Assembly (NCBI GenBank): GCA_965237415.1
Contig: CBDEFM010000001.1
Location: forward strand, 256,001-320,000
Reading direction: 5' to 3'
Length of the DNA stretch: 64,000 nucleotides
Origin: Alphaproteobacteria bacterium
GTDB lineage: Bacteria > Pseudomonadota > Alphaproteobacteria > UBA828
Below are positions 20,895 to 56,474 of the stretch, piece after piece (position 1 is the stretch's first letter; each line of letters starts with the position of its first letter). The position numbers and the translations under genes are program-made. The notes beneath the pieces are model-generated. The model worked only from the letters and a program-made list of their open reading frames with translations. It did not search any database and had not been told where the DNA came from.

Positions 20895-20897
20895 GCG

Positions 20898-28500: not shown

Positions 28501-28803
28501 CAGGACAGGTGGTGTACGATAACGGGCGGGATCGGATTCAGGCTGACGGCGCGGTGGGAGGCGTACTGATCCTCACGATCGCGTTCGACGCGAGCGGCAT
28601 CGGAAGGCAAGAAAGGGGATAACGTGTTCCGGGGCACACAACAGACTGGTGCGTGGCGTGGACGAGTGCACCCCCATCATCAAGCCGGCTCACAACGGTG
28701 GCGCGCGGGTCGGCGTGCACCCCGCGCGCCGGACCACGACCACTTGCAAGACCGGCCCCCTACGGCTGGCATCGCCGCCCGGAATAGGCCCGTGCGCTCC
28801 ACC

Positions 28804-31800: not shown

Positions 31801-33003
31801 GAGGCCGCGGCGGACGGCGGCTACGCGTCGCTGTGGGGCCGGGGCGCGGTCTCAAGCTTCGACGGCCGCGACGGCGACCTCACGCTCGACGGCGAGGTGA
31901 CGAGCGCCATGCTCGGGGCGGACTGGACGCGCGACCCCGGATCGGGGTCCGGGGCAGGTGCGTGGACCGCCGGGCTTCTGGTGTCGCATTCGCGCGGCGA
32001 CGGCAGCTACCGGGGCGAGGGCGAGGGCAAGGTCGAGAGCGCGCTGACCGGGCTCTATCCCTATGGGCGCTATGCGGTGAGCGACCGCGTGACGGTCTGG
32101 GGCGTGGCCGGCTACGGGTCGGGCACGCTCACGCTGACGCCGAAGAACCCGGTGGAGGGCGAGGACGACAGGCCGATCGAGACCGATATGAGCCTGACGA
32201 TGGGCGCGGTGGGCGTGCGCGGGGTGATGATCGAGGCGCCGGCCGAAGGCGGCCCGGAACTCGCGGTCAAGTCGGACGCGATGATGGTGCGCACGAGCTC
32301 GGAGGCGGCAAGCGGCAGCGGCGGCAATCTCGCGGCGGCGGAGGCCGACGTGACCCGTCTGCGGCTCGGTCTGGAGGGGAGCTGGCGCGGCATCGAGGCC
32401 GGCGGCGGCGAACTGACGCCGCGTCTCGAGATCGGGCTTCGCCATGACGGCGGCGATGCCGAGACCGGCTTCGGCCTCGACCTCGGTGGCGGGCTTGCCT
32501 GGTCGCATCCGGCGAGCGGGGTCTCGGCCGAGCTCAGCGGGCGCGGCTTGCTGACCCACGAGGCCGGCGGCTTCCGCGACCGTGGTATCTCGGGCTCGCT
32601 CGGCTGGGATCCGCGGCCGGAGACCGGGCGCGGGGTGAGCCTCACGCTGACCCAGACGCTGGGTGCGTCGGCCTCGGGCGGCATGGACGCGCTCTTGTCG
32701 CGCGGCACCCTGGCGGATCTGGCGGCCAACGACGACGGGGCGGACGATCTGCAGCGCCGCCGTCTGGAGCTCCGGCTCGGCTACGGCGTCTCCGCCTTCG
32801 GGGACCGGTTCACGGCGACGCCGGAGATCGGGCTCGGCCTGTCGGACAGCGCGCGCGACTACAGCCTCGGCTGGCGGCTCGGTCTCGACCGGTCCGGACC
32901 GAACGCGCTCGAACTCCGGCTCGAGGCGACGCGGCGCGAGAGCGCAAACGACAACGCGGACCCGGAGCACGGCATCGGGTTCAAGCTGACGGCGAGCTGG
33001 TGA
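28804..33003 (+). CDS. Autotransporter adhesin 1 (Calx-beta/Ig-like repeats, C-terminal beta-barrel)
   Basis: Signal MARGTAAALLTLAVLLG...AYA; VTVDYATSDGTATAGADY Calx-beta; AWLARFGRTVA linker; terminal W. Confidence 0.88.
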   Translation: MARGTAAALLTLAVLLGVALPGSPAYASDVLWEASLTVGNYLTADEPHSERERGFRREYCVPESWGSYLGEDWSNLLEEDRSNYDMCYGSISDRTFEVDGRTYTLEGVFHWVSDEVFLLEFTRSVDMTPLLGKEFIVNGVTFRMADGSFPAGNRGDGIVWHAPQWNAAMGWEVGSTISVQIKESGPLTAKFRNLPNSHNREPALLGLYPFAFLLEFSEEVAVDADTLRSVLTVTGGEMTGIARRYPPRNQIWRITVQPASLVAPVMLTLTAKASCEDDGAICTADGRRMAEAVEAEVPGAPPPRVTNVAIPGSSGPGENGTWDTGEIVLAQVSFSVPVTLVKPGGREPTLGILLDGMRREAAYWTRTERTLLFRYTVTAEDDGARNAWVVSNGLSLNGTTLRDEIDRDANLGFSIAPPLPGLSVADVTVTEAAGATADFVVTLSPAASETVTVDYATSDGTATAGADYTDTSGTLTFNAGETSKTVSVPVVDDAHEDSGETFTLTLSNASGGEAYLADASATGAIENDDPAVEATPLTAEVRDISVEAHDGSTAFTFELRFSEDVTGLSYATLRNSAFSVTNGQVTRSRRLVQGKNRRWEITVAPDGNDDVTITLPATTDCAATGAICNEDGRPLSAAVTATVPHTAQAQTDTPPPPDFRVRFEDIPAVHDGTSAIVFKVKFNTKPKASYSYVTMRDGTLVVRQGGAAIAVTRAKRLNKPHNDQWEITVNPVSKANMTVAIRQTASCSETGAICTETDEPLANGGLSQTILGPPGLRVMDAEVREAADATVDFSVILSPVSSATVTVNYATADDTATAGSDYTATSGTLTFEPGVTLKRVSVPVLDDVLDDDGETFTLTLSNPSGANAYLVDATATGTIRNSDPLQQAWLARFGRTVADQVIEAVQGRIQAPPRPGVAVSLAGQAIGGDGSLSGAGSAEPDGADARASLAEETEARSRLETMSNWLQGENEEDGSRAGFRSRSVTERDLLTGTSFSLTGEAAADGGYASLWGRGAVSSFDGRDGDLTLDGEVTSAMLGADWTRDPGSGSGAGAWTAGLLVSHSRGDGSYRGEGEGKVESALTGLYPYGRYAVSDRVTVWGVAGYGSGTLTLTPKNPVEGEDDRPIETDMSLTMGAVGVRGVMIEAPAEGGPELAVKSDAMMVRTSSEAASGSGGNLAAAEADVTRLRLGLEGSWRGIEAGGGELTPRLEIGLRHDGGDAETGFGLDLGGGLAWSHPASGVSAELSGRGLLTHEAGGFRDRGISGSLGWDPRPETGRGVSLTLTQTLGASASGGMDALLSRGTLADLAANDDGADDLQRRRLELRLGYGVSAFGDRFTATPEIGLGLSDSARDYSLGWRLGLDRSGPNALELRLEATRRESANDNADPEHGIGFKLTASW

Positions 33004-33660
33004 GGGCGCGGCGATGCGTCCCCTCGCCCACCCGTTCCGCGGAGCCGGCGCCCGGACCTCAGGCCCGGGTGACCTTCCAGAGGACCTTGCCGACGATATG
33101 GATGTCCGCGGCAAGGCAGGTATAGGCCGGGTAGCCCGGGTTGACCGAGAGCAGGCGCAGGCTCGGCGGGCCCGGCTCGCGGACCGGCTCGACGCGCTTG
33201 ACGACGAGGCCGTCGCCGTCCCACAGCACGAACAGCTCGCCGGCGCCGGGCATGGTGCGCCCGGTGTCGACCACCAGGCGGTCGCCCTCGCGCAGCTCCG
33301 GCTCCATGGAGATGCCGCGCACCTTGATGATGCGCAAGGCCCCGGGCTCGGCGTCGCCCTCGTGGCGGATCATCGCCTCGGGGAGCCGCCAGCGGGCCTT
33401 CTCAAGCACGAAGTCGTCGTTCCAGGCGCCGGGTCCGGCGGCGGCCTCGATCTCCATCTCGGCGACGCCGGTGGTGCGGGGCCGGGTACCGCGGTCCTTC
33501 TTCTTCCAGGGCTTGGGGGCCGGGAGCTCGGCATGGCGCAGCCCGGCCGGATCGCAGTCGAGCAGCGTGCCGAGCGCCTCGCTGTCCTGGAAGGAGAGCA
33601 CGCGGGGCATGCCGCGGGCGAGATATTGCTGGAGATAGGCCTTGTTGCGGCCGATGGCGA
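31463..33660 (+). repeat. ~2.2-kb direct repeat of ~50016-52202
   Basis: Near-identical beta-barrel coding region, intergenic region and repressor 3' part. Confidence 0.92.
33059..33660 (-). pseudogene. 5'-truncated copy of the S24 repressor
   Basis: Near-identical to 51601-52202 but lacks the first ~25 codons. Confidence 0.85.
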
Positions 33661-34095
33661 TGAGTCGTCCTGGCCGTCGCCGTCGTCCTGCTCGTCGGCC
33701 AGCCGGTCATAGGCTTGCTCGACGCTCATGCCCTCCCACGCCTCGGCGTCGGGCGGCAGGGTGAAACCGGCGTCGCGCAGCAGCGCATGGGTGACGAGCT
33801 GCGAGGCCCGCTGCCAGCGTTCGGGGTCGCGTTCGCCCCGGCGGGTGTGATGCTTGAGGGCGCAGGCCAGCACCACGCGGCCGATCGCGGTCTCGATGAA
33901 ATGCGCATCGGTGTCCACGATCCATTGGGGCGCATAGCGGATTTCGCGGCTGTCGCTGGCCACGGTCTCGCGGCTGGCATCGGCCCGGAGCGGCAGCCTG
34001 AGCGCCAGGCTGCCGAAGAAGGGCTGGTCGCGCAGCAATGCGGTCACGCAGCCGCTGATCCGCTGCGCCGATTCAGACTGCATGCGGGCGGCCAT
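33661..34095 (-). pseudogene. 3'-truncated DUF2201/VWA-associated metallopeptidase-like gene
   Basis: LLRDQPFFGSLAL...T.ASD...ALKHHTRRGERDP..W; fused out of frame to the repressor remnant. Confidence 0.7.
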
Positions 34096-34625: not shown

Positions 34626-35387
34626 TCATGACTTGGTAGCAGCGTCGGCATCATCGGTGCGCATGGACGTGCCGTGCAGCTCGATCCGGGTGGCGCCGTG
34701 GACGAGACGGTCGAGGATTGCATCGGCGAGGGTGGGATCGTTGAGCTGCCGGTGCCAGTCGGCGACCGGGAGTTGGCTGGTGGCGACCACCGAGCGCCGG
34801 CCGAAGCGATCATCGAGTATCTCGAGGAGGTCGCGTGCCCGCGCGCCGTCGATCGGCGCCAGGCCCCAGTCGTCGAGGATGAGCACCTCGATGCGGGCAA
34901 GATCGCGGTAGAGCTTCAGTATGGTGCCCTCGCCATGGGCGATCCGCAGATCGGTGAGCAGCCGCGGCACGCGCAGGTACTGGGCTTGGTACCCTTCGAG
35001 GCAGGCCTTGTGGGCGAAGGCGCACGCGATCCAGGACTTGCCGGTGCCGCAGGGGCCGGTGATCAGGATATTGGCGCCGTTGCGGACCCACACGCAGTCG
35101 CCGAGGCCGAGCACGAGGCTGCGGTCGAGACCGCGGGGGCGGCTCAGGTTGATGTCCTCGAAGCAGGCGTCCTGGTGGCGGAGCTGGGCCTTCTTGAGCC
35201 GCCGCTGTAGGGCTCTGGATCGGCGCTCGGCGATCTCGCGGTCGATCAGCAACGCGAGGCGGTCCTCGAAGGTCATGTCATCGAGGTCGTGGCGCGCCAT
35301 CTGTTCTAGGAAGGCGGCCTGCATCCCGGGTAGGCGCAGCTTGGCTATGCGCGCGGCCAGGGGGTGGGATACGGCGTTATCGGTCAT
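34626..35387 (-). CDS. istB: IS21 helper ATPase
   Basis: GPCGTGKS, ILDDWG, ADAILDRLVH. Confidence 0.95.
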   Translation of the reverse strand: MTDNAVSHPLAARIAKLRLPGMQAAFLEQMARHDLDDMTFEDRLALLIDREIAERRSRALQRRLKKAQLRHQDACFEDINLSRPRGLDRSLVLGLGDCVWVRNGANILITGPCGTGKSWIACAFAHKACLEGYQAQYLRVPRLLTDLRIAHGEGTILKLYRDLARIEVLILDDWGLAPIDGARARDLLEILDDRFGRRSVVATSQLPVADWHRQLNDPTLADAILDRLVHGATRIELHGTSMRTDDADAATKS

Positions 35388-36913
35388 CTGTAATACTCCG
35401 GTCCTCTAATGTTCGGATGATCGAGGGGCAGGGCCTCGGGTTCCTGCTCGGCGGCGGTGCGATCGGCGCCGGTGCGCAGGATGTTGTCGAGGCCGCGATA
35501 GGTTCGGGTGCCGAGCTCCAGCGCGTAGCGGCAGGCGGCGTCGAAGCGCGCCGGCTCGTGGCCGTTGGCGAGCCGCAGAACGCCGTAGCACGAGCGGAAG
35601 CCGAACTCCGGATTGGGATTGCGCTCCATGACCGCCGTGACGAAGGCGTGGACATGGGGGCCGAGATCCCGGGCCTTGTCCTCCAGCCGGACGCGGGTGT
35701 CCTCGACGCCGGCGCGCTGATGTGCCTGCGGCTGGTGTTCCCTGAGCGTGGTGGCGCGGCCTCTGGCCTGGCTGCGGAGATGGCTGGCAATCTGCCGGCC
35801 TCGGTGGAAGACGTCGATGACCGATCCGCGCAGGCGGACATCGACCTCCTTGCCGACGTACTGGTAGGGCACCGAGTAGAAGTGGCGGTCGATGGCGATG
35901 TGGTAATCGCGGTGGACCGTGTTCTTGCGCCACTGCGTGCGCTGCCAGCGCCGGTCCGGCAGGGACCGCATGTGGGGGAGATCGACACTCTCGAAACGGC
36001 TGTAGCGGTTCCCGCCCGTGCCATCGGCATAGGGGCGCTCGTTGATCTTCCGGGCCCGGACGGCGATCGCCCGGTTCAGCGACGCCAGATCATGGAAGAC
36101 ATGGTTGCGCAGCGGCGCCAGGATCCTGCGCTCAACGTGAAGCACTCCTTGTTCGACGAGTCCCTTGTCGCGCGGGCGCCGGACCCGCGCCGGCAGGCCC
36201 TGGACGCCGTAATGTTCGAGCAGATCGGCGTAGGTCTCGTTCAGGACCGGCTCGTAGCGCGACGGCTGCGTCACCGCCGGCTTGATGTTGTCGGGCACCA
36301 CCAGCTGCGGCGCCCAGCCCATGTCCTCGAAGCAGCGCACGTGCGAAGCGCACCAGTCCTCGATCTTCTGGGTCAGCGTCGCCTCGGCGTAGAGCCGCCC
36401 CGACACGCCCATCGAGGCCACGAACACCTGCGCCTCGTGCTCGACCCCGTCGACCAGGAGCGCAATCGTCATGCCGGCGTAATCGACGAACAGCCGCTCT
36501 CCGGGACGGCGATTCTGGCGCATCGTCACGTCCCGGCGCGGTCGCCATTCCCGGAACCGGCGGCACCAGGTCGGATAGCTCATCCCGTCGGGATGCGTCT
36601 CGCGCCATTCCTCCCACAGCAGCATCAGAGTCATGCCGCGGCCGGACAGGTCTTTCTCGACCTTCGCCCAGTCCACCTCCGGCCAATCCGAAGCCCGGGA
36701 CCTGCGGTAGAGCGCCGCCTCCAGGACCTCCTCGTCCAGGTCGCGGGCCTCCGGCCAGCTCAGCCCCGAGGCGGCAAACCGCTCCAGGATCTGCGCCACC
36801 GAGCGCCGCGCAAGGCCGCAGTGGGTGGCGATGGCGCGGGCGCTGCGGCCCTCGTCGAAATGAAACGCAAGAATCCTCTTCACCTTTCTCATCGGTAACC
36901 TTCCCTGTGCCAT
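35384..36913 (-). CDS. istA: IS21 transposase
   Basis: GERLFVDYAG, VPDN, PRDKGLVE. Confidence 0.95.
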   Translation of the reverse strand: MAQGRLPMRKVKRILAFHFDEGRSARAIATHCGLARRSVAQILERFAASGLSWPEARDLDEEVLEAALYRRSRASDWPEVDWAKVEKDLSGRGMTLMLLWEEWRETHPDGMSYPTWCRRFREWRPRRDVTMRQNRRPGERLFVDYAGMTIALLVDGVEHEAQVFVASMGVSGRLYAEATLTQKIEDWCASHVRCFEDMGWAPQLVVPDNIKPAVTQPSRYEPVLNETYADLLEHYGVQGLPARVRRPRDKGLVEQGVLHVERRILAPLRNHVFHDLASLNRAIAVRARKINERPYADGTGGNRYSRFESVDLPHMRSLPDRRWQRTQWRKNTVHRDYHIAIDRHFYSVPYQYVGKEVDVRLRGSVIDVFHRGRQIASHLRSQARGRATTLREHQPQAHQRAGVEDTRVRLEDKARDLGPHVHAFVTAVMERNPNPEFGFRSCYGVLRLANGHEPARFDAACRYALELGTRTYRGLDNILRTGADRTAAEQEPEALPLDHPNIRGPEYYR

Positions 36914-37335
36914 CCCGTATCCCTCGGACCAATCGCGAAAGTCCGAGGCGTACGACGGCACCCTGAGTCGCACCAAAACCCGCCGCCCCGCAGGGGTGGC
37001 TACCTTGGTGAGATTGGGTGGCTACCTTGAGTGAGAATCGGTGGCTACCTTCGTGAGATTCCGCACGCCAGCGCGTCGTCGCCGAAGATGTTGAGACGCG
37101 GAACCACGTCGACCAGGCCGCGGATGTTGTCGATCATCGAATCGCGGAACACGAGCGGCTTGCCGTTGTCGTCTTCCTGCAACCGCTCCGAAACGCGCTC
37201 CACGGCTTCGCCCAGGCGCCGGTAGAGGTCGGCGACGGCATCGTGCAGCCGCTCCTCGATCTGGCGCTCGATGTCGCGCTTGACCCGGTCGGTGTCGTCG
37301 CAGGCCAGCTTGGCGATAAAGTGGTCGGCGTCGGG

Positions 37336-37646
37336 GACCTTCGTCATTCGTATGCGTCCCGGGCGCTGGCACTCGGCGAGAGCCTGACGGTCATCGGCCG
37401 GCTGCTCGGCCACAACAAGGTCGAGACCACCGCCAAGTATGCCCATCTGGTTCGCGACGCGGAAAAGGCCGCAGCCGCGCGCACCGGCGACAGCATCGGC
37501 GCCCAGCTCATGCCCGTCGGTGCCGAGGCGGCGTGAAGGGGGAAACGATGGCCGTACAGCAGAAGATCCTCTCCAACCGCACCGTGGCGGCGCTCAGGGT
37601 CGAACGGGACACGGTGTTCTGGGACCGGGACCTGACTGGATTTGGA
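37336..37646 (+). pseudogene. Remnants of a second tandem integrase pair (C-terminus 37336-37536; N-terminus 37548-37646)
   Basis: DLRHSYAS...LLGH...KYAH*; MAVQQKILSNRTV...FWDRDLTGFG. Confidence 0.8.
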
Positions 37647-38890: not shown

Positions 38891-39166
38891 TCACCGGTTG
38901 ACGGCATCGCGGAGCGCCTTGCCGGCCTTGAACGACGGTGCCTTCGAGGCGGCGACGGCGATGCTTTCGCCGGTCGCGGGATTGCGGGCCTGTCTTGCCG
39001 CCCTGGCCCTGGTCGAGAAGCGCCCGAACCCCGCGATGGCGACGGTGTCGTCATGCGCCAGAGCGTCGGTGATGGCGGAGAATACGGCAGCGACGGCACG
39101 ATTGGCGGTTGCGTTGTCCAGAGACGCCTCGGCGGCCACGCGGGCGGTCAATTCGGACTTGTTCAT
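38891..39166 (-). CDS. hup: HU-family DNA-binding protein
   Basis: MNKSEL, GFGRF, ARNPATGE, PSFKAGKALRD. Confidence 0.93.
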   Translation of the reverse strand: MNKSELTARVAAEASLDNATANRAVAAVFSAITDALAHDDTVAIAGFGRFSTRARAARQARNPATGESIAVAASKAPSFKAGKALRDAVNR

Positions 39167-39995
39167 GGTGTATCCCCCGGGGTGCGATCGGACAGCCGCG
39201 GTCGGTGCGGCCTCCGGCAAGGGTGCCGATTCGCCGGGCGGCGATCAACGGGTGGTGTGACAACCCGGACCAACGGGTACGTCCCCGACCCGGCATGGCG
39301 TTGCGGGACGGGCTGAGTCGGGTTGGGGATGTCGAACCCGACATCGGGTACCGGGCAAGCGACCGGAGCCACGCGAGCCAACCGCGGTTGCCTCTGTGGA
39401 CATGGCGATGTCTTCCGATATGAGCGTGGGCAGACGGCGGTGGCGGATTTGCCCGTCGCGGAGGACAGGCCGGCCGCGCGGATGCCCCGCGCCTCCGGAT
39501 GCCCTCCCAGCATGAATTTCTACGCAAACGGCATTTTCGTTCCGGTCGGCACGCCGCCAATGAAAGCGGTGGTGCATGCGGTGCATGCGGATTGTCGAAC
39601 GCGTCCCGATCCCGGTCGAGCGCGTCGGCATGCGGCAGGACCGGAGGGTTCCGAGAGCATCCGTGTCGTCGCGAGCGGCAGCCGACCGGCATCGATCGCC
39701 GCGAACATCGGGCGCGTGAGATCCGGGCCGGTACCGCCTGGATGCGGGCGGTGTCGCATCGGAATCAGAAACGCCCGGAGAACGACGTGCCCCGGCGAGT
39801 ACCCCACGTTCGGTCGGGGTTTGAATGACGCGACGGCCGCCCCATACCAATCGATGGAGAACATGCGGCCGGGCGCTCATGGCGGGAACCGTATGTTCGA
39901 GAAGAGAAAGGATGTCATTTGTGGAGTCGCCGCCGCCGGCGGCGATTTCACCCGTTCACCCTCGTTGCCGATGGCGCTCGGCGCTGATGGACACC

Positions 39996-40125
39996 GTGTC
40001 CGGGCGCAGCGCCCGGGCCGGCGCAGCGCCGGGAGCGAATTGGTGGCGAGCCTGCACAGGGGACGCTGGAAGACCACCGCGAAGGTGAATCGCTACGCCA
40101 AGCGGTTGCTCACCCGTCGCAGGCA
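39996..40125 (+). pseudogene. Degenerate C-terminal remnant of a Cre-like recombinase
   Basis: VSGRSARAGAA / LHRGRWKTTAKVNRYAKRLLTRR versus ISGHSTRVGAA / LHAGRWKTTAMVNRYGERLLARR in the intact gene. Confidence 0.75.
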
Positions 40126-41034
40126 CGCGAGTGACCTCGCGCGGGCGCGGGTCCGACTGACCGGGTTCACCGGTGCACCGGCAACCGGTATCGTGCCGAC
40201 GCCACCGCCGCGCGCGATTGCACGGGGAATCGGTATGCGATTTCGACGTCGCGCGGTCCGTGCAGCCCTTCATCGCAATCGCGCAAGGCGCCTCGCCCCG
40301 CGTGACGCACGACAGGGCGTTACCGGGCACCCACGGTCATTCGCACTGTGTCTGTCGACAGCCCCGCACAGTACAGCGCGCTCTCCGGCGAAGTGTGTCT
40401 GGAACTTCGGTGCGCGCCGGCTATCGTCGGCGTCAGTCACCGACGCACAGGCAACGAGATGGCTTGCATCGGCAAGGCGACGGACCGCCACCGGAGCGGA
40501 GTGCGCACACCGACCCCACTGGGCGCCCTCGCGGGTCGCGCCGCAACGACGATGTTGCATCCGCGCATTCGAAGGTGCGTCGACGGCCATCGCGCCCGGG
40601 GCGGGGGTAGCCGGTTGCAGGCGAAACACCCGAAGGCGTCCCCGTGCGGCAGGCCCAATGCCGGTCGAGCATCGAGGTTGCCGCAAACGGCATTTTCATT
40701 CCCGCCGCCGAGTCGATAGTCAGGTCGGTGCACGACACGGCAGCCGCGGCCGGAGGCGCGGACGGTGAAGCGGAGAGGATCGGAAAGCTCGGGAGCGGAG
40801 ACGGCGAACCGCCGCAACGGCGCCGGGGAATGCCGGGCGCGGCGGGCCGTCCATCGCGGCGCGACAGGCGCGATCTTGGCCACGGGCAGGCCATCGGACG
40901 GGCTGCTCTCGCACGTGTCGGGACGCGCATGCACCGAAGGCGCTCGAAGCGCCCGGTCGCGTCCGAAAAATTGTTTGAAAGCAACCGGTTGCGGCGGATT
41001 CCAAGCAGCTCTGGCCTGGAGTCCACGACACCGT

Positions 41035-41068
41035 TTGGCTCGCGATAACTGTTGTTATCGCGAGCCAA
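41035..41068 (+). other. lox-like site A: TTGGCTCGCGATA-ACTGTTGT-TATCGCGAGCCAA
   Basis: Perfect 13-bp inverted arms with asymmetric 8-bp spacer, 34 bp. Confidence 0.88.
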
Positions 41069-41254
41069 CTTGTCAATTCCTGCGTTTCCGACCGGCGACC
41101 CGGAGGCTGCCCAGTCTCGACCCGAACATCGTAAGCCGTGCCGGAACTCGATACAACCGGTTGGTTCAAGGGCGGTTTCTTCCTCCCGGGACGCGCCGAC
41201 TGTGATGCGCGCGCCTCCCTCGCCCGGAAGCCGACCCTGAGCCCGGCGACGATT

Positions 41255-41267
41255 TTGGCTCGCGATA
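41255..41267 (+). other. Isolated lox-like half-site TTGGCTCGCGATA
   Basis: Exact arm match followed by AC, no second arm. Confidence 0.7.
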
Positions 41268-41362
41268 ACATTTTCTGGAAATCCGCCCCTTGGCACGATT
41301 CCTGTCGGGCGCACGGCGCCGGACGCCGCCGTGGGTACGCCGCATGATACGCCACCGCGCCC

Positions 41363-42334
41363 CTACTCGCGATGCTGTAAACGGGCGAGCTGCGCCGCCC
41401 CGCTTCGCCGCGCCAGGAGGCGCTCGCCGTAGCGGTTGACCATCGCCGTCGTCTTCCACCGTCCCGCGTGCAGGATGGCCGCCATGCCGATGCCTTCGGC
41501 GACCATGTCCTGCGCCGCCCCGACCCGTGTGCTGTGCCCGGAGATGCGCTCGACGACGTCGCCGGGCAATCCGGCACGCTCGGCCATGGCCTTGAAGATG
41601 CGCGGCACCTGGCTCGCATCGAGCCGCTCGCCGACCGCACCCCGGTTCAGCGAGCGGAAGAGCATGCCTTGGCACACGCCGCTTCGCTCGAGCCACTCGT
41701 GCACCAGCGCCACGCTGTCGCGCGCAAGATACGCCGTCGCGCCCCGGCCTTCGGCGTCCGTCTTGGAGCGGCGCACCAGCACCGTGGCCGCGCCGTCGCG
41801 TTCTTCAACGATATCCGTCACTTGCAGCGCGACGAGCTCGCCCCGGCGCAGCAGCGTGTCGTAGGCGACGGCCAGTAGCGCGCGGTTGCGCGCATCGATG
41901 AGCCCATCGCCCATGGCGTCGAGCAGGCGCTCGCGCAGCGCCCCGGTGAGCCCCTTGGCCTGCGCCTGACGCCGGCCCGTTCGCCGGTGCATGCGCTGCA
42001 GCGCGCGTCGCACCGGCTCGCGTTGCGTCGTCTTTCCCACCCCCATCGCCCGGTGCGCGGCGGCGATGCTCGCCACGTAGCGGCGCACCGTCGCGGGCGC
42101 GCGGACCCGGGCCATGGCGTCGACGAACGCGGCGAGGGTCTCGGCGCTCGCGGCCAGCGCCGGCTCACCGCGCTCGGTGCACCAGGCGGCGTAGATGGCG
42201 AGGTCGGAGCGCAGCGCCCGCTCGGTGTTGGCGCTCAGCGCCCCGCGCGCGGCCTTGGTGCAGGCGTCGAGCGTGTCCCGGTGAGTCTGGCCGTCGCTCT
42301 CGCGCGGCGGGTAGCGAACGGCGTCTACCAGCAT
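41363..42334 (-). CDS. Cre-like tyrosine recombinase
   Basis: SANTERALRSD, ATVRRY, TLLRRGEL, RSKTD, SGHSTRVG, GRWKT (Trp as in Cre), NRY; start uncertain (42334 or 42388). Confidence 0.9.
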   Translation of the reverse strand: MLVDAVRYPPRESDGQTHRDTLDACTKAARGALSANTERALRSDLAIYAAWCTERGEPALAASAETLAAFVDAMARVRAPATVRRYVASIAAAHRAMGVGKTTQREPVRRALQRMHRRTGRRQAQAKGLTGALRERLLDAMGDGLIDARNRALLAVAYDTLLRRGELVALQVTDIVEERDGAATVLVRRSKTDAEGRGATAYLARDSVALVHEWLERSGVCQGMLFRSLNRGAVGERLDASQVPRIFKAMAERAGLPGDVVERISGHSTRVGAAQDMVAEGIGMAAILHAGRWKTTAMVNRYGERLLARRSGAAQLARLQHRE

Positions 42335-42371
42335 GGGGAAGCCTCCAGGTCCGTGGAATACGGCCCGGAGA

Positions 42372-42405
42372 TTGGCTCGCGATAACAACAGTTATCGCGA
42401 GCCAA
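42372..42405 (-). other. lox-like site B: TTGGCTCGCGATA-ACAACAGT-TATCGCGAGCCAA
   Basis: Exact reverse complement of site A. Confidence 0.88.
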
Positions 42406-42563
42406 ATCGAGTGCGGCGGGGCGACCGGTTCGGACGTGGGCGAAGACGAGGAGCCACGGGCGATGTCGGGGCCATGTCCGCCGTGTCTCGGCTGGGAAGG
42501 GGGACGTCGGGCGCTCGCGCGCGGCGCCTGCGGCGACGAAGGCAAGGCCGGGGAGATGGGTTC

Positions 42564-45500
42564 ATGGCGAGAGTGAGACAGGCAACCGCGTCACGCGGCC
42601 GCACGGGGGCGCCGGAAACCGCCTCGACGCAGTGGGGGGCGCGGTGTCGGCAGGAGAAGCGAGCGGCAATCGCGCCCGGGAAGACACCGGAGGCGGCACA
42701 TGCGTCGCGACGGGAGCCGGTAGCACCCGTCTCCCGGCGGCGAGACTGCCCGCCTAGACCTTCTCCCACCGCGCGGTCCCCGCGCGGGCTATCTTCCTCC
42801 CTACTCGCTTATTTCGCGGCCGTCCCGGCGGCGGCGCTGCGCTGCCTGTCCCCGGATCGGGGTCCGGGGCAAGCCCCGCGCGCGGTTTCCTCCCGGCGCC
42901 GCGGCCCGCCTGCCGCCGCGCTACGCGCCGGGGCGGGCATCGCCCTGCTGCTGCTCGCCATGCTGACCGCCCTGCCGGCCCAGGCGCAGACCGACACCAC
43001 GGCGCCGACGCTCGTCACGACCAGCGCTCGCGGACCCACAGTCATTAGCACTGGCTTATCTCTCTACTTGATTTACGACGAGAATCTGGACCACGACAAC
43101 CATCCACCGGTCAGCGCCTTCAGCGTCATGGTCGATAGCAGTCCGATCACGGTGACAAGCGTAGAGGAAAGAACAACTATCAGCTTGAGGCTGAATCTGT
43201 CCCCCACCATCCGCCAGGGCCAGACCGTCACGGTGAGCTACACCGATCCGAGCTCGAGCAACGACGCCAACGCAATCCAGGACGCGGCCGGCAACGACGC
43301 CGCCACCTTCGCGAACCAGGCGATACGCAACATATCCACCGTCACCGGCATCCCCGGCGCCCCGACGGGGCTGTCGGCGACGAAGATGGGCGCCACGCAG
43401 ATCGACCTTTCCTGGACCGCGCCGACGGACACCGGCGGTGCGGAAATCACCGGCTACAAGATCGAGTGGTCGGCCAACGGCAATGCCCCCTGGAATGAGC
43501 TGATCGCGGACACCGGCAACACGGACACGACGTATTCCGACACCGGGCTCGCCTCGAAGACCACGCGCCACTACCGGGTTTCGGCGAGAAATTCCTTCGA
43601 CCTCGGCCCCGGCCCCGCCTCGAACGTCGACGACGCCACCACCGACGACATCGTCGGGCCGGTGCTGGTGAGGGTGTCGATCAACGCGTCCGGCGATAAT
43701 GTAAGGTTTTTCTTTGACGAGGCGCTTGACCAGCGCTCAGGAAAAACCCCGCCGGAGAGCGCCTTCGAGGTGCTGGCCGATGGAGTCCGGGTAGCGACAG
43801 ACGGTTTCGACGCGGTTTCGGAACCCCACCGTATTGTGCTCGTAACTACCGCCCCGACCATCAAGCAGGGCCAGACGGTCGTCGTCACCTACACCGACCC
43901 GAGCACGGGCAACGATCCCGTCGCCATCCAGGACCTGGCGGGCAACGACGCGGCGACCTTCACCACCGGCGTGTCGGGCGTCCCCGCGGTCGTCAACAGT
44001 TCCAACGTCGCGAATCCCGCCCCGGACGCGCCGACGGGGCTGACGGCGACGAAGATGGGCGGCACGCAGATCGACCTTTCCTGGACGGAGCCGGCGGACC
44101 CTGGCGATGCGGTAATCACGGGCTACTGGATCGAGGTCTCGGATACCGGCGCTACCGGCCCCTGGACCGAGCTGATCGCGGACACCGGCAACACGGACAA
44201 GACGTATTCCGACACCGGGCTCGCCTCGGAAACCACGCGCCACTACCGGGTTCGGGCGATCAATTCCTTCGGCCCCGGCCCCGCCTCGAACATCGACTCT
44301 GCCACCACCGACGACATCGTCGCGCCGGAGCTGGTGAGGGTGTCGATCAACGCGTTCGGCGATAATGTAAGGTTTTTCTTTGACGGGGCGCTTGACCAGC
44401 GCTCAGGAAAGACCCCGCCGGAGAGCGCCTTCGAGGTGCTGGCCGATGGAGTCCGGGTAGCGACAGACGGTTTCGACGCGGTTTCGGAACCCCACCGTAT
44501 TGTGCTCGTAACTACCGCCCCGACCATCAAGCAGGGCCAAACGGTCGTCGTTACCTACACCGACCCGAGCACGGGCAACGATGCCGCCGCCATCCAGGAT
44601 GCCGCCGGCAACGACGTGGCGACATTCACCACCGGAAAGGCGGGCGTCCCCGCGGTCGTCAACAGTTCCAATCAACCCGGCGTGAAGATATCCAAGACGG
44701 AACTGAGCATCGACGAAGGCGGCACCGGCACCTACACGGTGGCGCTCTATTCGCAGCCGACGGCGACGGTGACGGTCACGCCGTCGCGCACCAGCGGCGA
44801 TGCGGACATCACCGTGAGCGGCGGCCCCCTCACCTTCACCACGACGACCTGGAATGTGGCGCAGACGGTGACGGTACGCGCGGCCGAGGATGCGGATTTG
44901 GTTCGCGATACGGCCGTGATCGGCCACGCGGTGAGCGGCGGCAACTACGCCTCGGTCATGGCCGCTTCGGTGACCGTCACCGCGGCTGACAACGATGCGT
45001 CCAACGAGCCTGCCACCGGCAAGCCGACGATTTCAGGGACGGCGCAGGTCGGCCAGACGCTGACCGCGGCGAAGGGCAACATCAACGACCCAAACGGGCT
45101 GACCAAGGCCGACAACGACGAGACGGGCTTCGCCTACACCTACCAGTGGATCCGGGTGGATTCCGACGGCACGTCGAACCCGATGAATGTCGGGACCTCG
45201 AGCACCTACACGCTGGCGGCGTTGGACGAGGACAAGAAGATCAAGGTGGAAGTGAGCTTCCACGACGACAATGGCCACGCGGAGACGCGGACGAGCGACG
45301 CGTATCCGTCCGCGGACACGGTCCTGCCCTCTTCGGCGGTGAGCCTGTTGCTGTCGCCTGCATCGATCCGCGAGAACGGCGGCAGTGCCAGGATCAGGGC
45401 AAGGCTGAACGTGGCGTCGAGTGCCGAGACGACGGTCACGGTATCGGTCGAGCCGGTCCCGCCGGCGGTCGCCGGGGACTACGCGCTGAGCGCCAACACG

Positions 45501-48500
45501 GTGCTGAGGATTGCCGCCGGGCGGACCTTCAGCACGGGCCTGGTGACGCTGACGGCGGTGAACAACGATGTGGACGCGGACGACAAGACGGTCATCATCC
45601 TGGGCGATGCGGAGAACAGCGCGGGCGTTGGCGGTCCGGCCGAGGAGACGCTGACGATCGCGGACGACGATCGGGGCGTGCGGCTGGGCACGCGGTCGCT
45701 CGCGATCGATGAGGGCCGCAGCAAGGGCTACACGGTGGTGTTGGGGTCGCGGCCCACGGGGACGGTGACGGTGACGCCGCAGGTTCCGCCCGGCATGGTG
45801 ACGGTGTCGGGGCCGCTCCGGTTCACGCCGAGCACATGGGACGAGCCGCAGACGGTGACGGTGACGGCGGGCCAGGACGAGGACGAGGAGGACGAGTCGG
45901 TCCAGGTGACGCACGTTGTGTCGGGCGCGGATTACGGCGGCGTGACCGCGGACATCGTGCGGGTCACGGTGAGCGACGACGACGGCGGCACGGGCGTGCT
46001 GGAGGTGGGTGTGTATGACGGCTCGGACGGGGCCGGCGTCAAGGACCCGCCGCCGCAGGTGCATTTCGGGCAGCCGTTCAGGCTCGACCTGGTGTGGTCG
46101 CATCTGCGGACGAAGCATTGGGACAATCCGGAGTACGCGATCGGGCCGACCCGGGCGATCCGGGCGGTCGGCGGGACGGTGCGTGCGGTGCGGGGCCGGT
46201 TCAGCCCGCCCAGTAAGGGGGACCACGGCTGGGACCAGGCGCGCCTGACGCTCGAGGTCACGCCCGAGGCGAGCGACGGCAGCGACGACGTGACGCTGGT
46301 CCTGGAGCCGATGGATTGCAGCAGCAATGACGCGCGAGCGCTGTGCGCCTTCGCCAGCATCGGGAAGTGGACCGGCCTGGCGAAACGGGTGCGCTTCACG
46401 GTGCGCGGTATCACCGGTCCGCCGGAGGTGGCGCCGGCGGAGCTGGACCTGACGGTGACCCCGCAGGAGCGGCGCGGCACGGATATGTTCCTGGTGAGCT
46501 TCGACGCCGACGAGGAGGGGACGCGCTTCCGGCTGCAGACGCAGGCGGCCGGCGGGGATTGGACGAGAACGCGCGAGTGGACCGGGGCGATGCGCTCGGA
46601 GAACCAGCATCGGGTGACGGTCGACGGGGTGTCGCACGATGACGCCTACGAGTTCCGGGTGCGCTGGGAGAACCGCTTCGGGCCGGGGCCGTGGGCGCAA
46701 GCGAGCACGGCCGGCGCGGCGCCGGCGGCGCCGACAAGGCTCACGCTCACGGCGATGTACGACGCCAAGAGCCTGGCGCTCGCCTGGACCCCGGCGGCAG
46801 GCGGGGTGCGGATCGACCGCTTCCAGTACCGGATCGAGCGAATCCGTAGCGAGGAGCTGGTTATCCTTTCGGACACGGGGCCGATTCAATATTTGGGCAA
46901 TTGGATCGACATTCCGAACAGCGGAACGGGCGGCGCGAACCACCGTTCGTGGACGATCGGGGGGCTTGCGAACATATGGGCCGCCAGGATCCGGGTGCGC
47001 GCGGTGAGCGCGTCGGGCCGCGCGGGCGCGGCCTCGGCGGAAGCGGTGGCGGCGGTCGACGTGCCGCGGGTGGTGGACATCTCGATGGCGTCGGACCCCG
47101 GTGCCGACGGGTACTACACGTACGGAAACAGGATCGGGATCAACGTGAGGTTGAGCCGTCCGGTCCGCATCCCGGGTAACGATCGGGGACCGTCGCTGGA
47201 GGTCGAGATCGGAAGCCGCGTGTACAGCCTGGGGCTGGTGTCGATGCGGCAGTCGGTGGCGCATGAACTGATCGGACAGGCGCCGTTGTCGGGCGACGTG
47301 CTGTTCTTCGAGCACAGCCTTGGTACGGGTGACGTGGACCACAACGGGATCCGGGTGCCGGCCGGCGCGCTCAAAGGCAATGGCGGGCGGCTGCTCGACC
47401 TGACACCCGCGGGAGAAGACCAGGTGGCGGACCTCGCCGTGAGCACGGCAAAAACCTTCCCGGCGCACAAGGTGAACACGGTCCCGCCGGGCATCGTGCG
47501 CATGACCTGGCAGCAGAACCTGGACACGAAGGGCGTGGTGCGGGGCGCCGAGGTGCGCATCCACTACGACCGCGACCTCGACCCGGATTCGAGGCTGGAT
47601 CCCGGCAGGGTCCAGTACCGGGTGGCGTATTCGGAGTCGCGGGCGCTCGGCCGCAGCGTGACGGGACTGAGCATCGGCGACGCCACCGACGACGGGATCG
47701 ACAACCCCCGGACGGTGCGGCTGGTGCTGGCGCCGGTGGTCCACGATCCGAGCACCAACCCGCGCAACAGCCCGACGCCGCCCGAGACCGTGACGGTGAC
47801 CTATTCGGGAATGAAAGTGAGCGGGAACACCGGGCGGCGATACGGCCCCTTCGATACGCTGGGGAACCCCCTCGCGGGCTTCACCCGGGCGGCGGAGCAC
47901 CTGACCGCGACGCAGGCAGCGTTGGCGGCGGAGTTCCGAAACGTACCGCCCGAGCACAACAGCCCGTTCACCTTCGAGGTGCATTTCAGCGAGGAGGTCG
48001 CGCTCACCGAAGAGATGCTGCTGAACTCGGTCTTCACGGTGACCAACGGCACGGTGTCGGCCGCGCGGCGGCTCAATCCGCCGAGCAACATCGCCTGGGA
48101 GATCACGGTCGATTCGATCACCGAGGAGGCGGTGACGGTGGTGCTGCCGGAGACCACGGACTGCACCGTGGCGGGCGCGATCTGCACCTGGGACGAGCGC
48201 CCGCTCTCGGCGGAGATTTCGGCGACGGTGGCCGGCCCGCAGATCGTGGCGACGAGCGTGGTGACGAGCGCGGCGGTGACCAACGGTCCCGGAGACAATG
48301 GCACCTGGGACACCGGCGAAACCGTCGAGGCCGAGGTGCGCTTCAGCGCGCCGGTGACGGTGGTGGCGCCTCCGGGCTCCGGGCCGATCCTCGCCATCCT
48401 GCTCGACGGCACGCGCCGCGAGGCGGCGTACACCGGCGGTTCAGGCACCGACACGCTGCGCTTCAGCTACACGGTTGCGGAAGCGGACAACGGAGCCCGG

Positions 48501-51500
48501 AAGGCGCGCGTTGCCCCGAACGGGCTCGCGCTCAACGGAACGACCATCGGAGACAGTGAAGGCGTCGCGGCCGATATCGGTTTCTCTACCGCGCCGTATG
48601 TGACGGCTGTCGAACTCGCGGCGGATGGCTCGGGGGACGGGATCTGGACCCCAGGCGAGACTATTGCCGCCCGCCTCACCTTCAGCGAGGCGGTGACGGT
48701 GGCGGGCGGCACGCCGTATCTCTGGATCACGGTCGCAGGGATGCCGGGCGCGCTCGGCTACGCGTCCGGATCGGGAAGCGACACGCTGGTCTTCTCCATA
48801 GAGGTGCCGGGCGGGAGCCTCTCCGAAATCGAGGTGACGGCGGACAGTCTCAACGCCAACGGCGCGGCCATCGTGTCGCAGGCGAGCGGCATCGCGGCGG
48901 AGCTCGGCCATGACGGCACGGCGCCGGAGGCGGCGCCGGAGAACGCGGGCGCCACCGCGCTGACGGCGGCGTTCGCGGAGCTGCCGGAGAGCCACGGCGG
49001 CGCGGCGTTCACCTTCGAGCTCCGCTTCAGCGAGGCGTTCCCGATCGGCTACGAGACGATGCGCGACGATGCGTTCACGGTGACGAACGGGCGTGTGACC
49101 GGGGCGCGACGCCTCGACAATCCGCACCGCGAGTCCGTGCGCATGGAACCCAACCGGGTATGGGAGATCACCGTCGAGCCCGACACGGACGCCGGAGACG
49201 TCTCGATTGCGCTGCCTGAAACGACCGACTGCACCGCGGCCGGCGCGGTCTGCACCGGGGACAACCGCCCGCTCACGGCGGAGATTTCGGCGACGGTGGC
49301 CGGCCCGGCGCAGGCGGTGACGCCCCCGCCGCCGGGCTTCCGGGTCCGCTTCGAGGACTTCCCGTCGGAGCATGACGGGACCAGCGCGGTCGTCTTCAAG
49401 GTGATGTTCAACAAGAAGCCGGCGAACTACAGCTACCGCACGATGCGCGACAACACGCTCCTCGCCCGGCAGGGGAGCCAAGCGGTCACGCCCAAGCGGG
49501 CCAAACGCCTCAACGCACCGCACAGCGACCAGTGGCGGATCACGATCGAGCCGGCCTCCAAGGCGGACATGCACGTCGAGATCCGCCACACCACGGCGTG
49601 CACCGAAACGGGCGCGGTGTGCACGGCGGAGAACGAACAGCTCTCGAACCGGCTCTCGAAGACGATCCTCGGCCCTCCGGGGCTCGCGGTGGCGGACGCG
49701 CGGGTGGAGGAAGCGGCGAACGCGACGGTGGACTTCGCGGTGACGCTCAGCCGCGCGTCATCGTCGACGGTGACGGTGGACTATGCGACCTCGGACGGCA
49801 CGGCGACGGCGGGCAGCGACTACACGGCGACGTCGGGGACGCTGACCTTCGCGCCGGGCGACACGGCGAAGACGGTGTCGGTGCCGGTGCTGGACGACGC
49901 CCATGACGAGGACCATGAGACGTTCACGCTGACGCTCTCCAACCCCTCGGGCGGCAACGCCTGGCTCTCCGACGCCACGGCGACGGGCACGATCGAGAAC
50001 ACCGACAAGATGCCGCAGGCGTGGCTGGCGCGCTTCGGGCGCACGGTGGCCGACCAGGTGATCGACGCGGTGCAGGGCCGCATTCAGGCGCAGCCGAGTC
50101 CCGGGGTCGCGGTGAGTCTCGCGGGCCAGGCGATCGGCGCCAACGGATCGTTGTCCGGGGCCGGTTCCGCGGAGCCGGACGGTGCGGACGCGCGGGCGAC
50201 GCTGGCCGAGGAGACCGAGGCCCGGTCGCGGCTGGAGACGATGTCGAACTGGCTGCAGGGCGAGAATGAGGAGGATGGCAGTCGGGCCGGGTTCCAGTCA
50301 CGCAGCGTGACGGAACGCGACCTGCTGACCGGGACGTCGTTCTCGCTGACCGGCGAGGCCGCGGCGGGCGGCGGCTACGCGTCGCTGTGGGGCCGGGGCG
50401 CGGTCTCGCGCTTCGACGGCCGCGACGGCGATCTCACGCTCGACGGCGAGGTGACGAGCGCGATGCTCGGGGCGGACTGGACGCGCGATGCGTGGACCGC
50501 CGGGCTTCTGGTGTCGCATTCGCGCGGCGACGGCAGCTACCGGGGCGAGGGCGAGGGCAAGGTCGAGAGCGCGCTGACCGGGCTCTATCCCTATGGGCGC
50601 TATGCGGTGAGCGACCGCGTGACGGTCTGGGGCGTGGCCGGCTACGGGTCGGGCACGCTCACGCTGACGCCGAAGAACCCGGTGGAGGGCGAGGACGACA
50701 GGCCGATCGAGACCGATATGAGCCTGACGATGGGCGCGGTGGGCGTGCGCGGGGTGATGATTGAGGCGCCGGCCGAAGGCGGCCCGGAGCTCGCGGTCAA
50801 GTCCGACGCGATGATGGTGCGCACGAGCTCGGAGGCGGCAAGCGGCAGCGGCGGCAATCTCGCGGCGGCGGACGCCGATGTGACCCGTCTGCGTCTCGGG
50901 CTTGAGGGAACCTGGCGCGGCATCGAGGCCGGCGGCGGGGAACTGACGCCGCGTCTCGAGGTGGGCGTGCGCCATGACGGCGGCGACGCCGAGACCGGCT
51001 TCGGCCTCGACCTCGGTGGCGGGCTTGCCTGGTCGCATCCGGCGAGCGGGATATCGGCCGAGCTCAGCGGGCGCGGCTTGCTGACCCACGAGGCCGGCGG
51101 CTTCCGCGACCGTGGTATCTCGGGCTCGCTCGGCTGGGATCCGCGGCCGGAGACCGGGCGCGGGGTGAGCCTCACGCTGACCCAGACGCTGGGTGCGTCG
51201 GCCTCGGGCGGCATGGACGCGCTCTTGTCGCGCGGCACCCTGGCGGATCTGGCGGCCAACGACGACGGGGCGGACGATCTGCAGCGCCGCCGTCTGGAGC
51301 TCCGGCTCGGCTACGGCGTCTCCGCCTTCGGGGACCGGTTCACGGCGACGCCGGAGATCGGGCTCGGCCTGTCGGACAGCGCGCGCGACTACAGCCTCGG
51401 CTGGCGGCTCGGTCTCGACCGGTCCGGGGCGAACGCGCTCGAACTCCGGATCGAGGCGACGCGGCGCGAGAGCGCCAACGACAACGCGGACCCGGAGCAC

Positions 51501-51600: not shown

Positions 51601-52278
51601 TCAGGCCCGGGTGACCTTCCACAACACCTTGCCGACGATGTGGATGTCCGCGGCAAGGCAGGTATAGGCCGGGTAGCCCGGGTTGACCGAGAGCAGGCGC
51701 AGGCTCGGCGGGCCCGGCTCGCGGACCGGCTCGACGCGCTTGACGACGAGCCCGTCGCCGTCCCAGAGCACGAAGAGCTCGCCGGCGCCGGGCATGCGCC
51801 GCCCGGTGTCAACCACCAGGCGGTCGCCCTCGCGCAGCTCCGGCTCCATGGAGATGCCGCGCACCTTGATGATGCGCAAGGCCCCGGGCTCGGCGTCGCC
51901 CTCGTGGCGGATCATCGCCTCGGGGAGCCGCCAGCGGGCCTTCTCAAGCACGAAGTCGTCGTTCCAGGCGCCGGGTCCGGCGGCGGCCTCGATCTCCATC
52001 TCGGCGACGCCGGTGGTGCGGGGCCGGGTACCGCGGTCCTTCTTCTTCCAGGGCTTGGGCGCCGGGAGCTCGGCATGGCGCAGCCCGGCCGGGTCGCAGT
52101 CGAGCAGCGCGCCGAGGGCCTCGCTGTCCTGGAAGGAGAGCACGCGGGGCATGCCGCGGGCGAGATATTGCTGGAGATAGGCCTTGTTGCGGCCGATGGC
52201 GAGCGAGGCTTCGGCGAGTGAGACGCCGCTCTGCCATAGCTGTTCGCGCAGTCGGTCTCGCACTGGGTCGCGCTCCAT
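51601..52278 (-). CDS. CI/LexA-like repressor (HTH plus S24 peptidase)
   Basis: SLAEASLAIGRNKAYLQQY, AAAG cleavage motif, GISMEP, VVKR. Confidence 0.9.
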   Translation of the reverse strand: MERDPVRDRLREQLWQSGVSLAEASLAIGRNKAYLQQYLARGMPRVLSFQDSEALGALLDCDPAGLRHAELPAPKPWKKKDRGTRPRTTGVAEMEIEAAAGPGAWNDDFVLEKARWRLPEAMIRHEGDAEPGALRIIKVRGISMEPELREGDRLVVDTGRRMPGAGELFVLWDGDGLVVKRVEPVREPGPPSLRLLSVNPGYPAYTCLAADIHIVGKVLWKVTRA

Positions 52279-52369
52279 CGCGGGCTCCTCTGTCTATGCC
52301 TCACAGGTGCAGGATATCTCCTAACTAATCCTGTTGTCAACGGCGCGTGTTCGGTTTACGTTCGCGTCC

Positions 52370-54308: not shown

Positions 54309-55202
54309 GTGAGAACCACGCAATCGATATTGCCGGCGATACTGCCGGCGCGCGCGGCGCCCCGGTCAGGGTCCGGGGCAGGCTGCCGGCGCACCGTGCG
54401 GGGCGCCCTGCTTCTTGTCCATATGGCCTGCGCGCTGGCGGCGGCGCCGGCGGCGGCGATGCAGGTGCTCGACGCGGTCGACCATGCCGAGCTCACGGCG
54501 GAGGTCTCGGCGACGGCGGTGAGCCGCATCGCGCTCGGCAATGACCGCATCGCGCGGGTGATCCGGGCGCCGGGCGGCTTCGAGACCGAGCACGACCCGG
54601 GCTCCGGCGACCTCTATCTGCGCCCGCTCGGAACCCGGGATGCGGGCGCTGGAATGGACGATACGGGGGACGATCCGCCCGAGACGGCGCCGGTGTCGCT
54701 GTTCATCGGCACCGAGAAGGGATTCACCTACCGGCTGACGCTGGCGGTCGCCGAGCGCGGCTCGGCGCAGATCCTGATCCGCAACGCCGCGGCCCAGGAT
54801 CCGGTCCGGAACGCCCCGGCGGCGGGCGATCCGCGGATCGGCGCCCTGGTGCGCCTGATCGGCGCGGTGGCGCGCCGCGAACCGCTGCCGGGCTATGCGA
54901 TCGAGGCCGCGGCGGCCGGCCCTGACGGCGCGGCCGGACCGGTCTTCGGCACCTTGGAGACCTGGCGCGGGCCGCGCTTCGAGGTCCTTGTGGTCGAGAT
55001 CCCGGACCGGATGTTGGTTGGCGAAACCCCTGGCGGACCCCTTTCCGGCGGACCTGGGGATGCGGCGGCGGTCGCCGCCCGGCTCGGCCCCGGCATCGCG
55101 GCGGCGTGGCTCGCCGGCCCCGGCACGGGGCCATCGGGCGGGCGCATCGCGGTGACGGTGCGCGAGCGAGCCGCGCCGGTGTCCGGGGGGACTTCGCGAT
55201 GA
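54309..55202 (+). CDS. traK: Secretin-like T4SS protein
   Basis: VSRIAL..DRI, GDLYLRP, FIGTEKGFTY; gene order. Confidence 0.82.
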   Translation: MRTTQSILPAILPARAAPRSGSGAGCRRTVRGALLLVHMACALAAAPAAAMQVLDAVDHAELTAEVSATAVSRIALGNDRIARVIRAPGGFETEHDPGSGDLYLRPLGTRDAGAGMDDTGDDPPETAPVSLFIGTEKGFTYRLTLAVAERGSAQILIRNAAAQDPVRNAPAAGDPRIGALVRLIGAVARREPLPGYAIEAAAAGPDGAAGPVFGTLETWRGPRFEVLVVEIPDRMLVGETPGGPLSGGPGDAAAVAARLGPGIAAAWLAGPGTGPSGGRIAVTVRERAAPVSGGTSR

Positions 55203-56473: not shown

Positions 56474-56474
56474 G

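Follow-up and report, generated by a model that had tools for sequence, protein, structure and literature searches.

A candidate invertible promoter cassette built on a Cre-type recombinase and inverted lox-like sites, beside a giant adhesin-like gene in an alphaproteobacterial genome

A stretch of about 1.37 kb in a 64,000-nucleotide (nt) window of an alphaproteobacterial genome (lineage UBA828; assembly GCA_965237415.1, contig CBDEFM010000001.1) is probably a hin-like, self-contained invertible promoter cassette built on a Cre-type enzyme. The window is the whole piece of DNA analysed, C1:256001-320000 of the two-contig genome G000, and all positions are window coordinates unless a contig is named. 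Two lox-like sites in inverted orientation enclose a recombinase gene, next to a gene for a giant adhesin-like protein; the recombinase would bind these two 34-bp partner sites and flip the DNA between them, its own gene included. Throughout, UP denotes the site at the recombinase-start end (site B here) and DN that at the recombinase-stop end (site A here).

The first-pass annotation of the window had described two inverted 34-bp lox-like sites around a Cre-like recombinase with six catalytic residues, and the description holds. Sites A and B (Table 1) form a 35-nt inverted repeat, 100% complementary, with 1303 nt between its arms; each 34-bp site consists of two perfect 13-nt arms around an asymmetric centre (15-4-15 is an alternative reading), the central 4 nt being TGTT in site A and, reversed, AACA in site B. 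The recombinase gene is the sole gene between them, and an in-frame ATG lies 33-41 nt past the UP site in 73 of 76 loci of the wider family described below. The recombinase matches the Pfam model Phage_integrase (PF00589; E 2.6e-20, 73.3 bits against a cut-off of 27.1), and its closest solved relative is Cre (E 2.8e-23 over residues 28-308), with XerD next (5.5e-7). Residues R163, K191, H267, R270, W293 and Y302 align with R173, K201, H289, R292, W315 and Y324 of Cre, and all six are invariant across eight paralogues and orthologues. Judged by its two-domain likeness to Cre and the tryptophan at the fifth catalytic position, the enzyme is a tyrosine recombinase of the Cre type. A hairpin telomere resolvase was considered and rejected, the central 4 nt being asymmetric and the enzyme Cre-sized (323 amino acids, aa) and Cre-like.

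Covariation of the spacers is the strongest sign, at the level of sequence, that the two sites recombine with each other. One genome per species was scanned, giving 328 loci that encode relatives of the recombinase, and details were taken from the best 80, in which sites were sought with a mismatch-tolerant detector; the loci are kin, and their counts overstate independence. Both sites were detected in 63 of these 80, which bears out the search for the same site pair in homologues that had been suggested for the window. Across the 63, the UP spacer differed from the reverse complement of the DN spacer at no position in 32 loci, at one in 27 and at two in 4, while direct comparison of UP with DN always gave at least two mismatches. 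Twelve kinds of central 4 nt occur among these loci, and 59 of the 63 UP/DN pairs have at most one mismatch, against a mean of 15.9 (maximum 24) under shuffled pairing, a contrast that is not to be read as a probability. A Cre-type enzyme needs identical spacers to recombine two sites. Because the spacers covary and such an enzyme needs spacer identity, UP and DN would be partners in recombination and, lying in inverted orientation, their recombination would therefore produce inversion.

Both orientations are found among homologous loci. In the cassettes L077 and L061 both sites are present and a giant gene (encoding Calx-beta, SWM, fn3 and cadherin domains) lies on the DN side, on the same strand, and the UP side holds a divergent LuxR/STAND regulator. 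Over 881 aa the latter shares 50% identity with the DN-side regulator of a third locus, L073, and the regulators of L061 and L077 are 88% identical to each other; by this comparison of flanks, the cassette is turned round between L073 and L077/L061 relative to the same flanking gene pair. The giant gene of L061 has a normal ATG and a signal peptide about 130 nt past the DN site. When the L077 regulator was sought in 81 genomes of the order to which its own genome (G094) belongs, only G094 itself matched. As a separate observation, the recombinase frame runs through the UP site in L073, L077 and L061; the recombinase ATG of L073 is formed by the first bases of the outer arm, and the flipped L077 and L061 have no canonical start. 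Translation of the enzyme in this subgroup might depend on orientation.

The two ends of the cassette differ in a way that suggests a promoter. Alignment of the region from recombinase stop to DN site brings out a conserved TTGACA-like box 2-4 nt inside the DN site. Exact TTGAC occurs within 14 nt of the DN site in 40 of the 48 long-form cassettes (about 1310-1414 nt) and at the UP end in none of 78, and short forms (about 1136 nt) mostly have TTGCCG in its place. At a spacing of 16-18 nt the lox spacer supplies a second hexamer (TACAGT in 17 loci, GACAGC in 10, TACAAT in 8 and AACAGT in 6). A match of at least 8/12 to TTGACA-16/18-TATAAT, reading outward, is present at the DN end of 58 of 66 loci and at the UP end of 4 of 76. 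The spacer has an identical outward reading at the two sites, and the -10 half is therefore present at either end; the -35 half is found at the DN end only.

We take the DN end to carry an outward, sigma-70-type promoter, with its -35 box just inside the site and the lox spacer as its -10. The whole promoter would then travel with the invertible segment, the -35 half moving with it. In the assembled orientation it is predicted to face the regulator side (a decayed LysR-type gene and an intact HU-family gene), leaving the giant adhesin-like gene with only a -10 half, predicted OFF; inversion would bring it next to site B and direct it into the giant gene, which is then predicted ON. By eye, a partial sigma-54-like motif was also spotted near 41289-41304.

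The flanks of related cassettes are consistent with two such outputs. Upstream, a divergent raw frame of at least 700 aa is present at 46 of the 80 loci (one of these frames, in L077, being the regulator), and a separate count with a codon-bias filter found a large divergent frame at 53 of 105 loci; the same arrangement recurs in three genomes of the same genus (G003, G005 and G011) and at a copy in the window's own genome (L011). Domain content was checked for only four of the large upstream or downstream frames. At 14 of 44 loci a Shine-Dalgarno (SD) motif and an in-frame giant-gene start lie 16-50 nt outside the UP site, and because of this closeness there is no room for a promoter of the giant gene's own. 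On the DN side the genes on the recombinase strand are regulators: LysR plus an HU-family gene at L030, L031 and L038, a hybrid kinase-response regulator at L090 and the Longimicrobiales loci, and a MalT/LuxR-like protein at L073. The first-pass annotation had assigned the switch a single output, the giant gene; that side is supported by the comparison of loci, and to it must be added the side of the regulator and HU-family gene, which it had missed.

Besides the four arms of its two sites the window cassette contains a solitary third arm, or half-site, that the first-pass annotation had not listed. With up to two mismatches the window contains six occurrences of the 13-nt arm, whereas 100 shuffles gave a mean of 1.93 and never as many as six; with up to three mismatches the third arm is found in 41 of 46 long-form and none of 20 short-form cassettes. 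Two copies of a CAA-N4-TTG motif, which we take to resemble the core of the integration host factor (IHF) consensus, flank site A. Of 48 long-form loci, 25 have the motif 80-99 nt inside the DN site and 15 have it 40-49 nt outside, against a background of one per 6.2 kb. Third arm and motifs together hint that helper factors may take part in recombination; they are probably accessory sites with an influence on the course or bias of the reaction, and the HU/IHF-family protein encoded nearby may bind them.

The cassette is not the one-off module that it had first appeared to be, but a member of the 328-locus family with three further intact copies, plus remnants, in its own genome. One of these, a second full cassette (C2:2142434-2143812), is 86% identical to the window cassette over 1388 nt, the homology ends at the outer edges of the sites, and the same G-to-A change is present in all five of its arms; the other two are paralogues (66-68% aa identity), each with its own variant sites. 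Relatives occur in 5 of 20 other genomes of the genus. The best 80 loci, at 60-84% aa identity and often several per genome, span at least five phyla-level groups, their metagenome-assembled genomes (MAGs) being labelled Gammaproteobacteria, Alphaproteobacteria, Vicinamibacterales (Acidobacteriota), Longimicrobiales/Palauibacter (Gemmatimonadota) and Chloroflexi, and record titles of several indicate sponge metagenomes. Against MAGs of other phyla the window cassette shows 78-84% nucleotide homology, again bounded by the two sites. A scan of metagenome contigs returned 32 loci, at most 81% identical, none of them a second version of the window locus.

Some individual copies are of interest in themselves. 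In a decayed copy in the same genome (C2:2247116-2249631) about 2.1 kb with a 617-aa frame is inserted between the third arm and the DN site, and in L028 (G011:C1) about 2.1 kb interrupts the recombinase gene, with 626-aa frames nearby. L031 and L038, on the same MAG chromosome, are two facing cassettes separated by about 15 kb that includes LysR, HU and two integrase genes, and recombination between the two could invert a larger block. The recombinase copy of L038 is truncated at about residue 80.

It is possible to read this distribution in another way, with the cassette primarily a mobile or exchangeable block that passes from site to site, for example by double recombination at its inverted sites, and with inversion and effects on neighbours as by-products. 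We consider this unlikely as the main explanation, although the site-bounded homology, the multiple copies in this and other genomes and the range of phyla described above all speak for it, as does a cassette between recJ and prfB in three Azotimanducaceae MAGs (L049, L054 and L055; about 9100-11440). These two genes are adjacent in 17 of 24 other Azotimanducaceae genomes and 30-70 nt apart in most relatives. However, the insertion between them (about 2.3 kb) exceeds the cassette, with some 800 nt extra past the UP site, including a 96-nt stretch similar to the giant-gene side of G003. Simple recombination between inverted sites does not release a circle; the gene context is conserved, not random; a conserved block lies also 40-60 nt outside the DN site; and the nearby HU gene is itself 76% identical at the nucleotide level, so that rapid evolution of the flanks may account in part for the sharp edges. 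No target duplications were found, nor any empty sites with lox-like sites at their ends. Mobility and promoter switching are not mutually exclusive, and it is tempting to speculate that the cassette is a horizontally shared, plug-in bistable switch, in which a single promoter, with the lox crossover spacer as its -10, alternates between a giant adhesin gene and a regulator/HU operon, and which spreads between loci and phyla through recombinase-mediated exchange at its own inverted sites; we hold this combined view to be possible but doubtful.

Two further explanations concern what the sites do. Inversion may be real with its output confined to the recombinase and the regulator side, switching the regulator/HU operon on and off, while the giant gene has its own, perhaps activator-dependent, promoter and is linked only indirectly. 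The promoter-like element does face the regulator in nearly all assemblies, the giant gene of the window has a leader of 160-550 nt outside site B that leaves room for a promoter, and an activator could replace the -35 at the UP end, where the spacer is also -10-like. This seems distinctly unlikely to us in view of the giant-gene starts 16-50 nt from the site in 14 of 44 loci, the L061 giant gene, with its ordinary start and signal peptide, which follows the promoter end, and the decay of the LysR-type gene on that side in the window. Still less probable, and in our view quite improbable, is that no inversion occurs and the sites serve as autoregulation operators and as resolution or stabilisation sites of a conjugative element, in the manner of Cre-like enzymes of plasmids. 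Plasmid relatives are indeed common (237 plasmid records, at most 49% identity, one beside a toxin-antitoxin pair), and site B overlaps the necessary position of the recombinase promoter; but resolution needs one site per replicon copy, not a conserved second site with an inverted-match spacer, and neither the one-sided -35 box nor the flipped loci would be explained. Within 8.9 kb of the nearest plasmid relative (Methylobacterium, 49%) no lox-like palindrome with at least 11/13 arm matches was found. Site A as a leftover of a decayed paralogue, which the first-pass annotation had entertained, is rejected: it occupies the regular DN position of the family, and homology is bounded by the sites. 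Nor is the decayed neighbouring gene chiefly a paralogue, being mainly LysR-like with only a 55-residue recombinase-like remnant.

There are also points that weigh directly against an invertible promoter cassette. As to the promoter, a stricter consensus scan of 40600-43100 returned no sites, the window -10 (AACAGT) matches at only 3 of 6 positions, and A2 plus T6 of the -10 are present in only 35 of 66 loci. As to the sites, only UP was detected in 12 of the 80 loci, only DN in 2 and neither in 3, and some cassettes stand beside unrelated genes (TetR, prfB/recJ, sulfatase, Slam). The flipped state with a giant gene is known from only two loci, making orientation very lopsided, and both of these (L077 and L061) have degenerate arms and a recombinase without the usual SD-ATG; they may be fossils, switches frozen in the rare state. 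Ten sequencing runs were found, none of them recorded as RNA. Contigs from four of these public runs (X1, X2, X3 and X8) stop at 41064 or start at 41039, and contigs cannot tell the orientations apart because the two sites share the 35-nt repeat, which they break at and do not bridge; there is no read-level evidence of two orientations. Of the hin-like, Cre-type switch upstream of the giant gene that had been proposed for the window, then, the covarying spacers, the promoter-like element at one end and the opposite orientations of L077/L061 and L073 are supportive, and inversion within one population is the part left without support. In X1 and X2 one contig each links 41064 with 42098/42099 on opposite strands, at a depth like that of the organism's other contigs; this joint differs from the junction expected of site-by-site inversion.

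Table 1. Coordinates of the cassette, its predicted signals and its neighbouring genes in the window.
Feature	Position	Strand	Basis or remark
Site A, TTGGCTCGCGATAACTGTTGTTATCGCGAGCCAA (DN lox-like site, 13-8-13)	41035-41068	.	Same place as DN site in other family members
Site B (UP lox-like site)	42372-42405	.	37 nt before recombinase ATG
Cre-type tyrosine recombinase gene, 323 aa	41363-42334	-	GGAGG 8 nt before ATG
Solitary third arm / half-site (fifth arm overall)	41255-41269	+	Arm search
-35 box TTGACA of predicted outward promoter	41071-41076	-	2 nt inside site A
-10-like hexamer AACAGT in lox spacer (putative element)	41048-41053	-	17 nt after TTGACA box
CAA-N4-TTG motif CAACCGGTTG, outside site A	40982-40991	.	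IHF-core-like
Second CAA-N4-TTG motif CAACCGGTTG, inside cassette	41154-41163	.	
Giant secreted repeat protein gene (SWM repeat, fn3, Calx-beta)	42564-51533	+	Start uncertain
Putative decayed LysR-type regulator gene	39245-40760	-	Collinear weak tblastx matches
HU/IHF-family DNA-binding protein gene	38891-39220	-	Pfam Bac_DNA_binding, 5.9e-30

The frame of the giant gene comprises 3066 aa and is open from 42315; position 42564 is the nearest ATG with an SD-like motif, and no in-frame ATG, GTG or TTG occurs between 42573 and the core of a signal peptide at 42960. This gap could reflect an assembly indel, a non-canonical start or a long leader, and long leaders are present at other loci as well. 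An out-of-frame ATG with a good SD lies near 42463 (region 42333-42984). That inversion might supply the missing start codon of the giant gene was considered and is not general, as L081 and L061 have ordinary starts. An autotransporter was likewise rejected: no autotransporter model of Pfam (E up to 1) or NCBIfam matched the last 599 aa of the protein.

On the other side, the product of the HU-family gene matches the NCBIfam HU-beta and IHF models below their cut-offs, and a gene of this family lies at a like distance in L030, L031, L036 and L038. The tblastx matches in the putative LysR remnant are to intact LysR genes located after the DN site in L030, L031 and L038, and no intact frame with codon bias was found in this region. 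Left of the cassette there are two short C-terminal remnants of tyrosine recombinases on the plus strand, one at 37243-37536 (Pfam, 3e-5) and one at 39989-40150, of which 55 residues match the recombinase at 50%. In the Longimicrobiales loci L081-L099 a direct repeat of TTGTGA-like words lies 20-45 nt outside the DN site, before the hybrid kinase-response regulator gene, and may serve as a binding site for that regulator itself.

In keeping with the conjugative element on which the first-pass annotation had placed the cassette, TrbI and TraC-like genes lie at 54926-59822, 3.4-8.3 kb past the giant gene. That gene is also followed by a gene resembling an S24 repressor and by one of the HTH_17 type (excisionase-type helix-turn-helix), and there are two integrase genes at 19686-22046. 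The setting is plausibly an integrative conjugative element, which would explain the spread of the family. Elsewhere in the window, 28570-33706 holds a 1477-aa frame with Calx-beta followed by an S24 peptidase-like gene, and appears to duplicate the giant gene's 3' part together with the downstream S24 gene (51601-52293), the two regions having the same pattern of shadow frames. An IS21-type pair (IstB 34626-35405, transposase 35384-37021) and an IS1595-type transposase (22395-23429) are placed between the duplicated piece and the HU gene.

Among known inversion systems the nearest in function are Hin/hix of Salmonella and fimS/ipuS. In Hin/hix a serine recombinase acts with an enhancer, and the invertible segment contains the recombinase gene and an outward promoter. 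As there, the promoter of the present cassette would drive a neighbour in one orientation only, and nucleoid proteins assist Hin; the differences are a Cre-type tyrosine recombinase in place of a serine enzyme and a -10 within the crossover spacer. Flp/FRT of the yeast 2-micron plasmid has 599-bp repeats, and its inversion serves copy-number amplification. It is alike in its tyrosine recombinase, its two inverted 13-8-13 sites with an extra third arm and its natural inversion.

The Cre/loxP, SCre/SloxP, VCre/VloxP and YR systems share with the cassette a Cre-like enzyme with the residues R-K-H-R-W-Y and a 34-bp 13-8-13 site near its gene; identity to the recombinase is about 25-30% for Cre and about 30% for the Shewanella plasmid proteins. 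SloxP is the nearest site, with the arm end CGATA shared, as is the ACTGT-type spacer ACTGTAAT with SloxM1, a site that SCre recombines, so that the SloxP-like character first ascribed to the spacer is confirmed from PMC3082901. According to PMC10250229, GATA beside the spacer is common to active Cre-type sites, and about 500 Cre-type enzyme/site pairs have been predicted. In the accessible parts of both papers (PMC3082901, PMC10250229) these systems have one site near the gene and no natural inversion is described, whereas here two inverted sites bracket it; the present cassette further adds a third arm, a chromosomal or integrative-conjugative-element setting and an adjoining giant gene. In fimS/ipuS, too, a promoter element is inverted by a tyrosine recombinase, and the outputs are a LuxR-type regulator and a surface adhesin (PMC6083910 for ipuS). 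The enzymes there belong to the different, Fim-type subfamily, are encoded outside the element and use short inverted repeats; in the present cassette the enzyme is encoded within, each site is a full lox-like palindrome, and the regulator is on the side opposite the adhesin. Our literature searches turned up no account of a switch formed by a Cre-type gene enclosed by inverted lox-like sites, and the supplement of PMC10250229, with its roughly 500 pairs, may list members of the family.

Although Cre-type recombinases are the principal tools of genome engineering, what most of them do in nature is unknown. If the cassette is what we propose, one of them would gain a natural role, in a compact invertible promoter that carries its own enzyme and in whose design the crossover spacer doubles as a promoter element. 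Within the family there are many natural enzyme/site pairs, whose arms differ and whose spacers are of at least 12 types, and were the plug-in switch correct it would supply dozens of natural, mutually orthogonal Cre-type sets of enzyme, site and spacer. For the organisms themselves, phase variation of giant surface proteins would be common to several phyla of uncultured, largely sponge-type symbionts, probably having spread on conjugative elements, and would bear on how such symbionts vary their surface.

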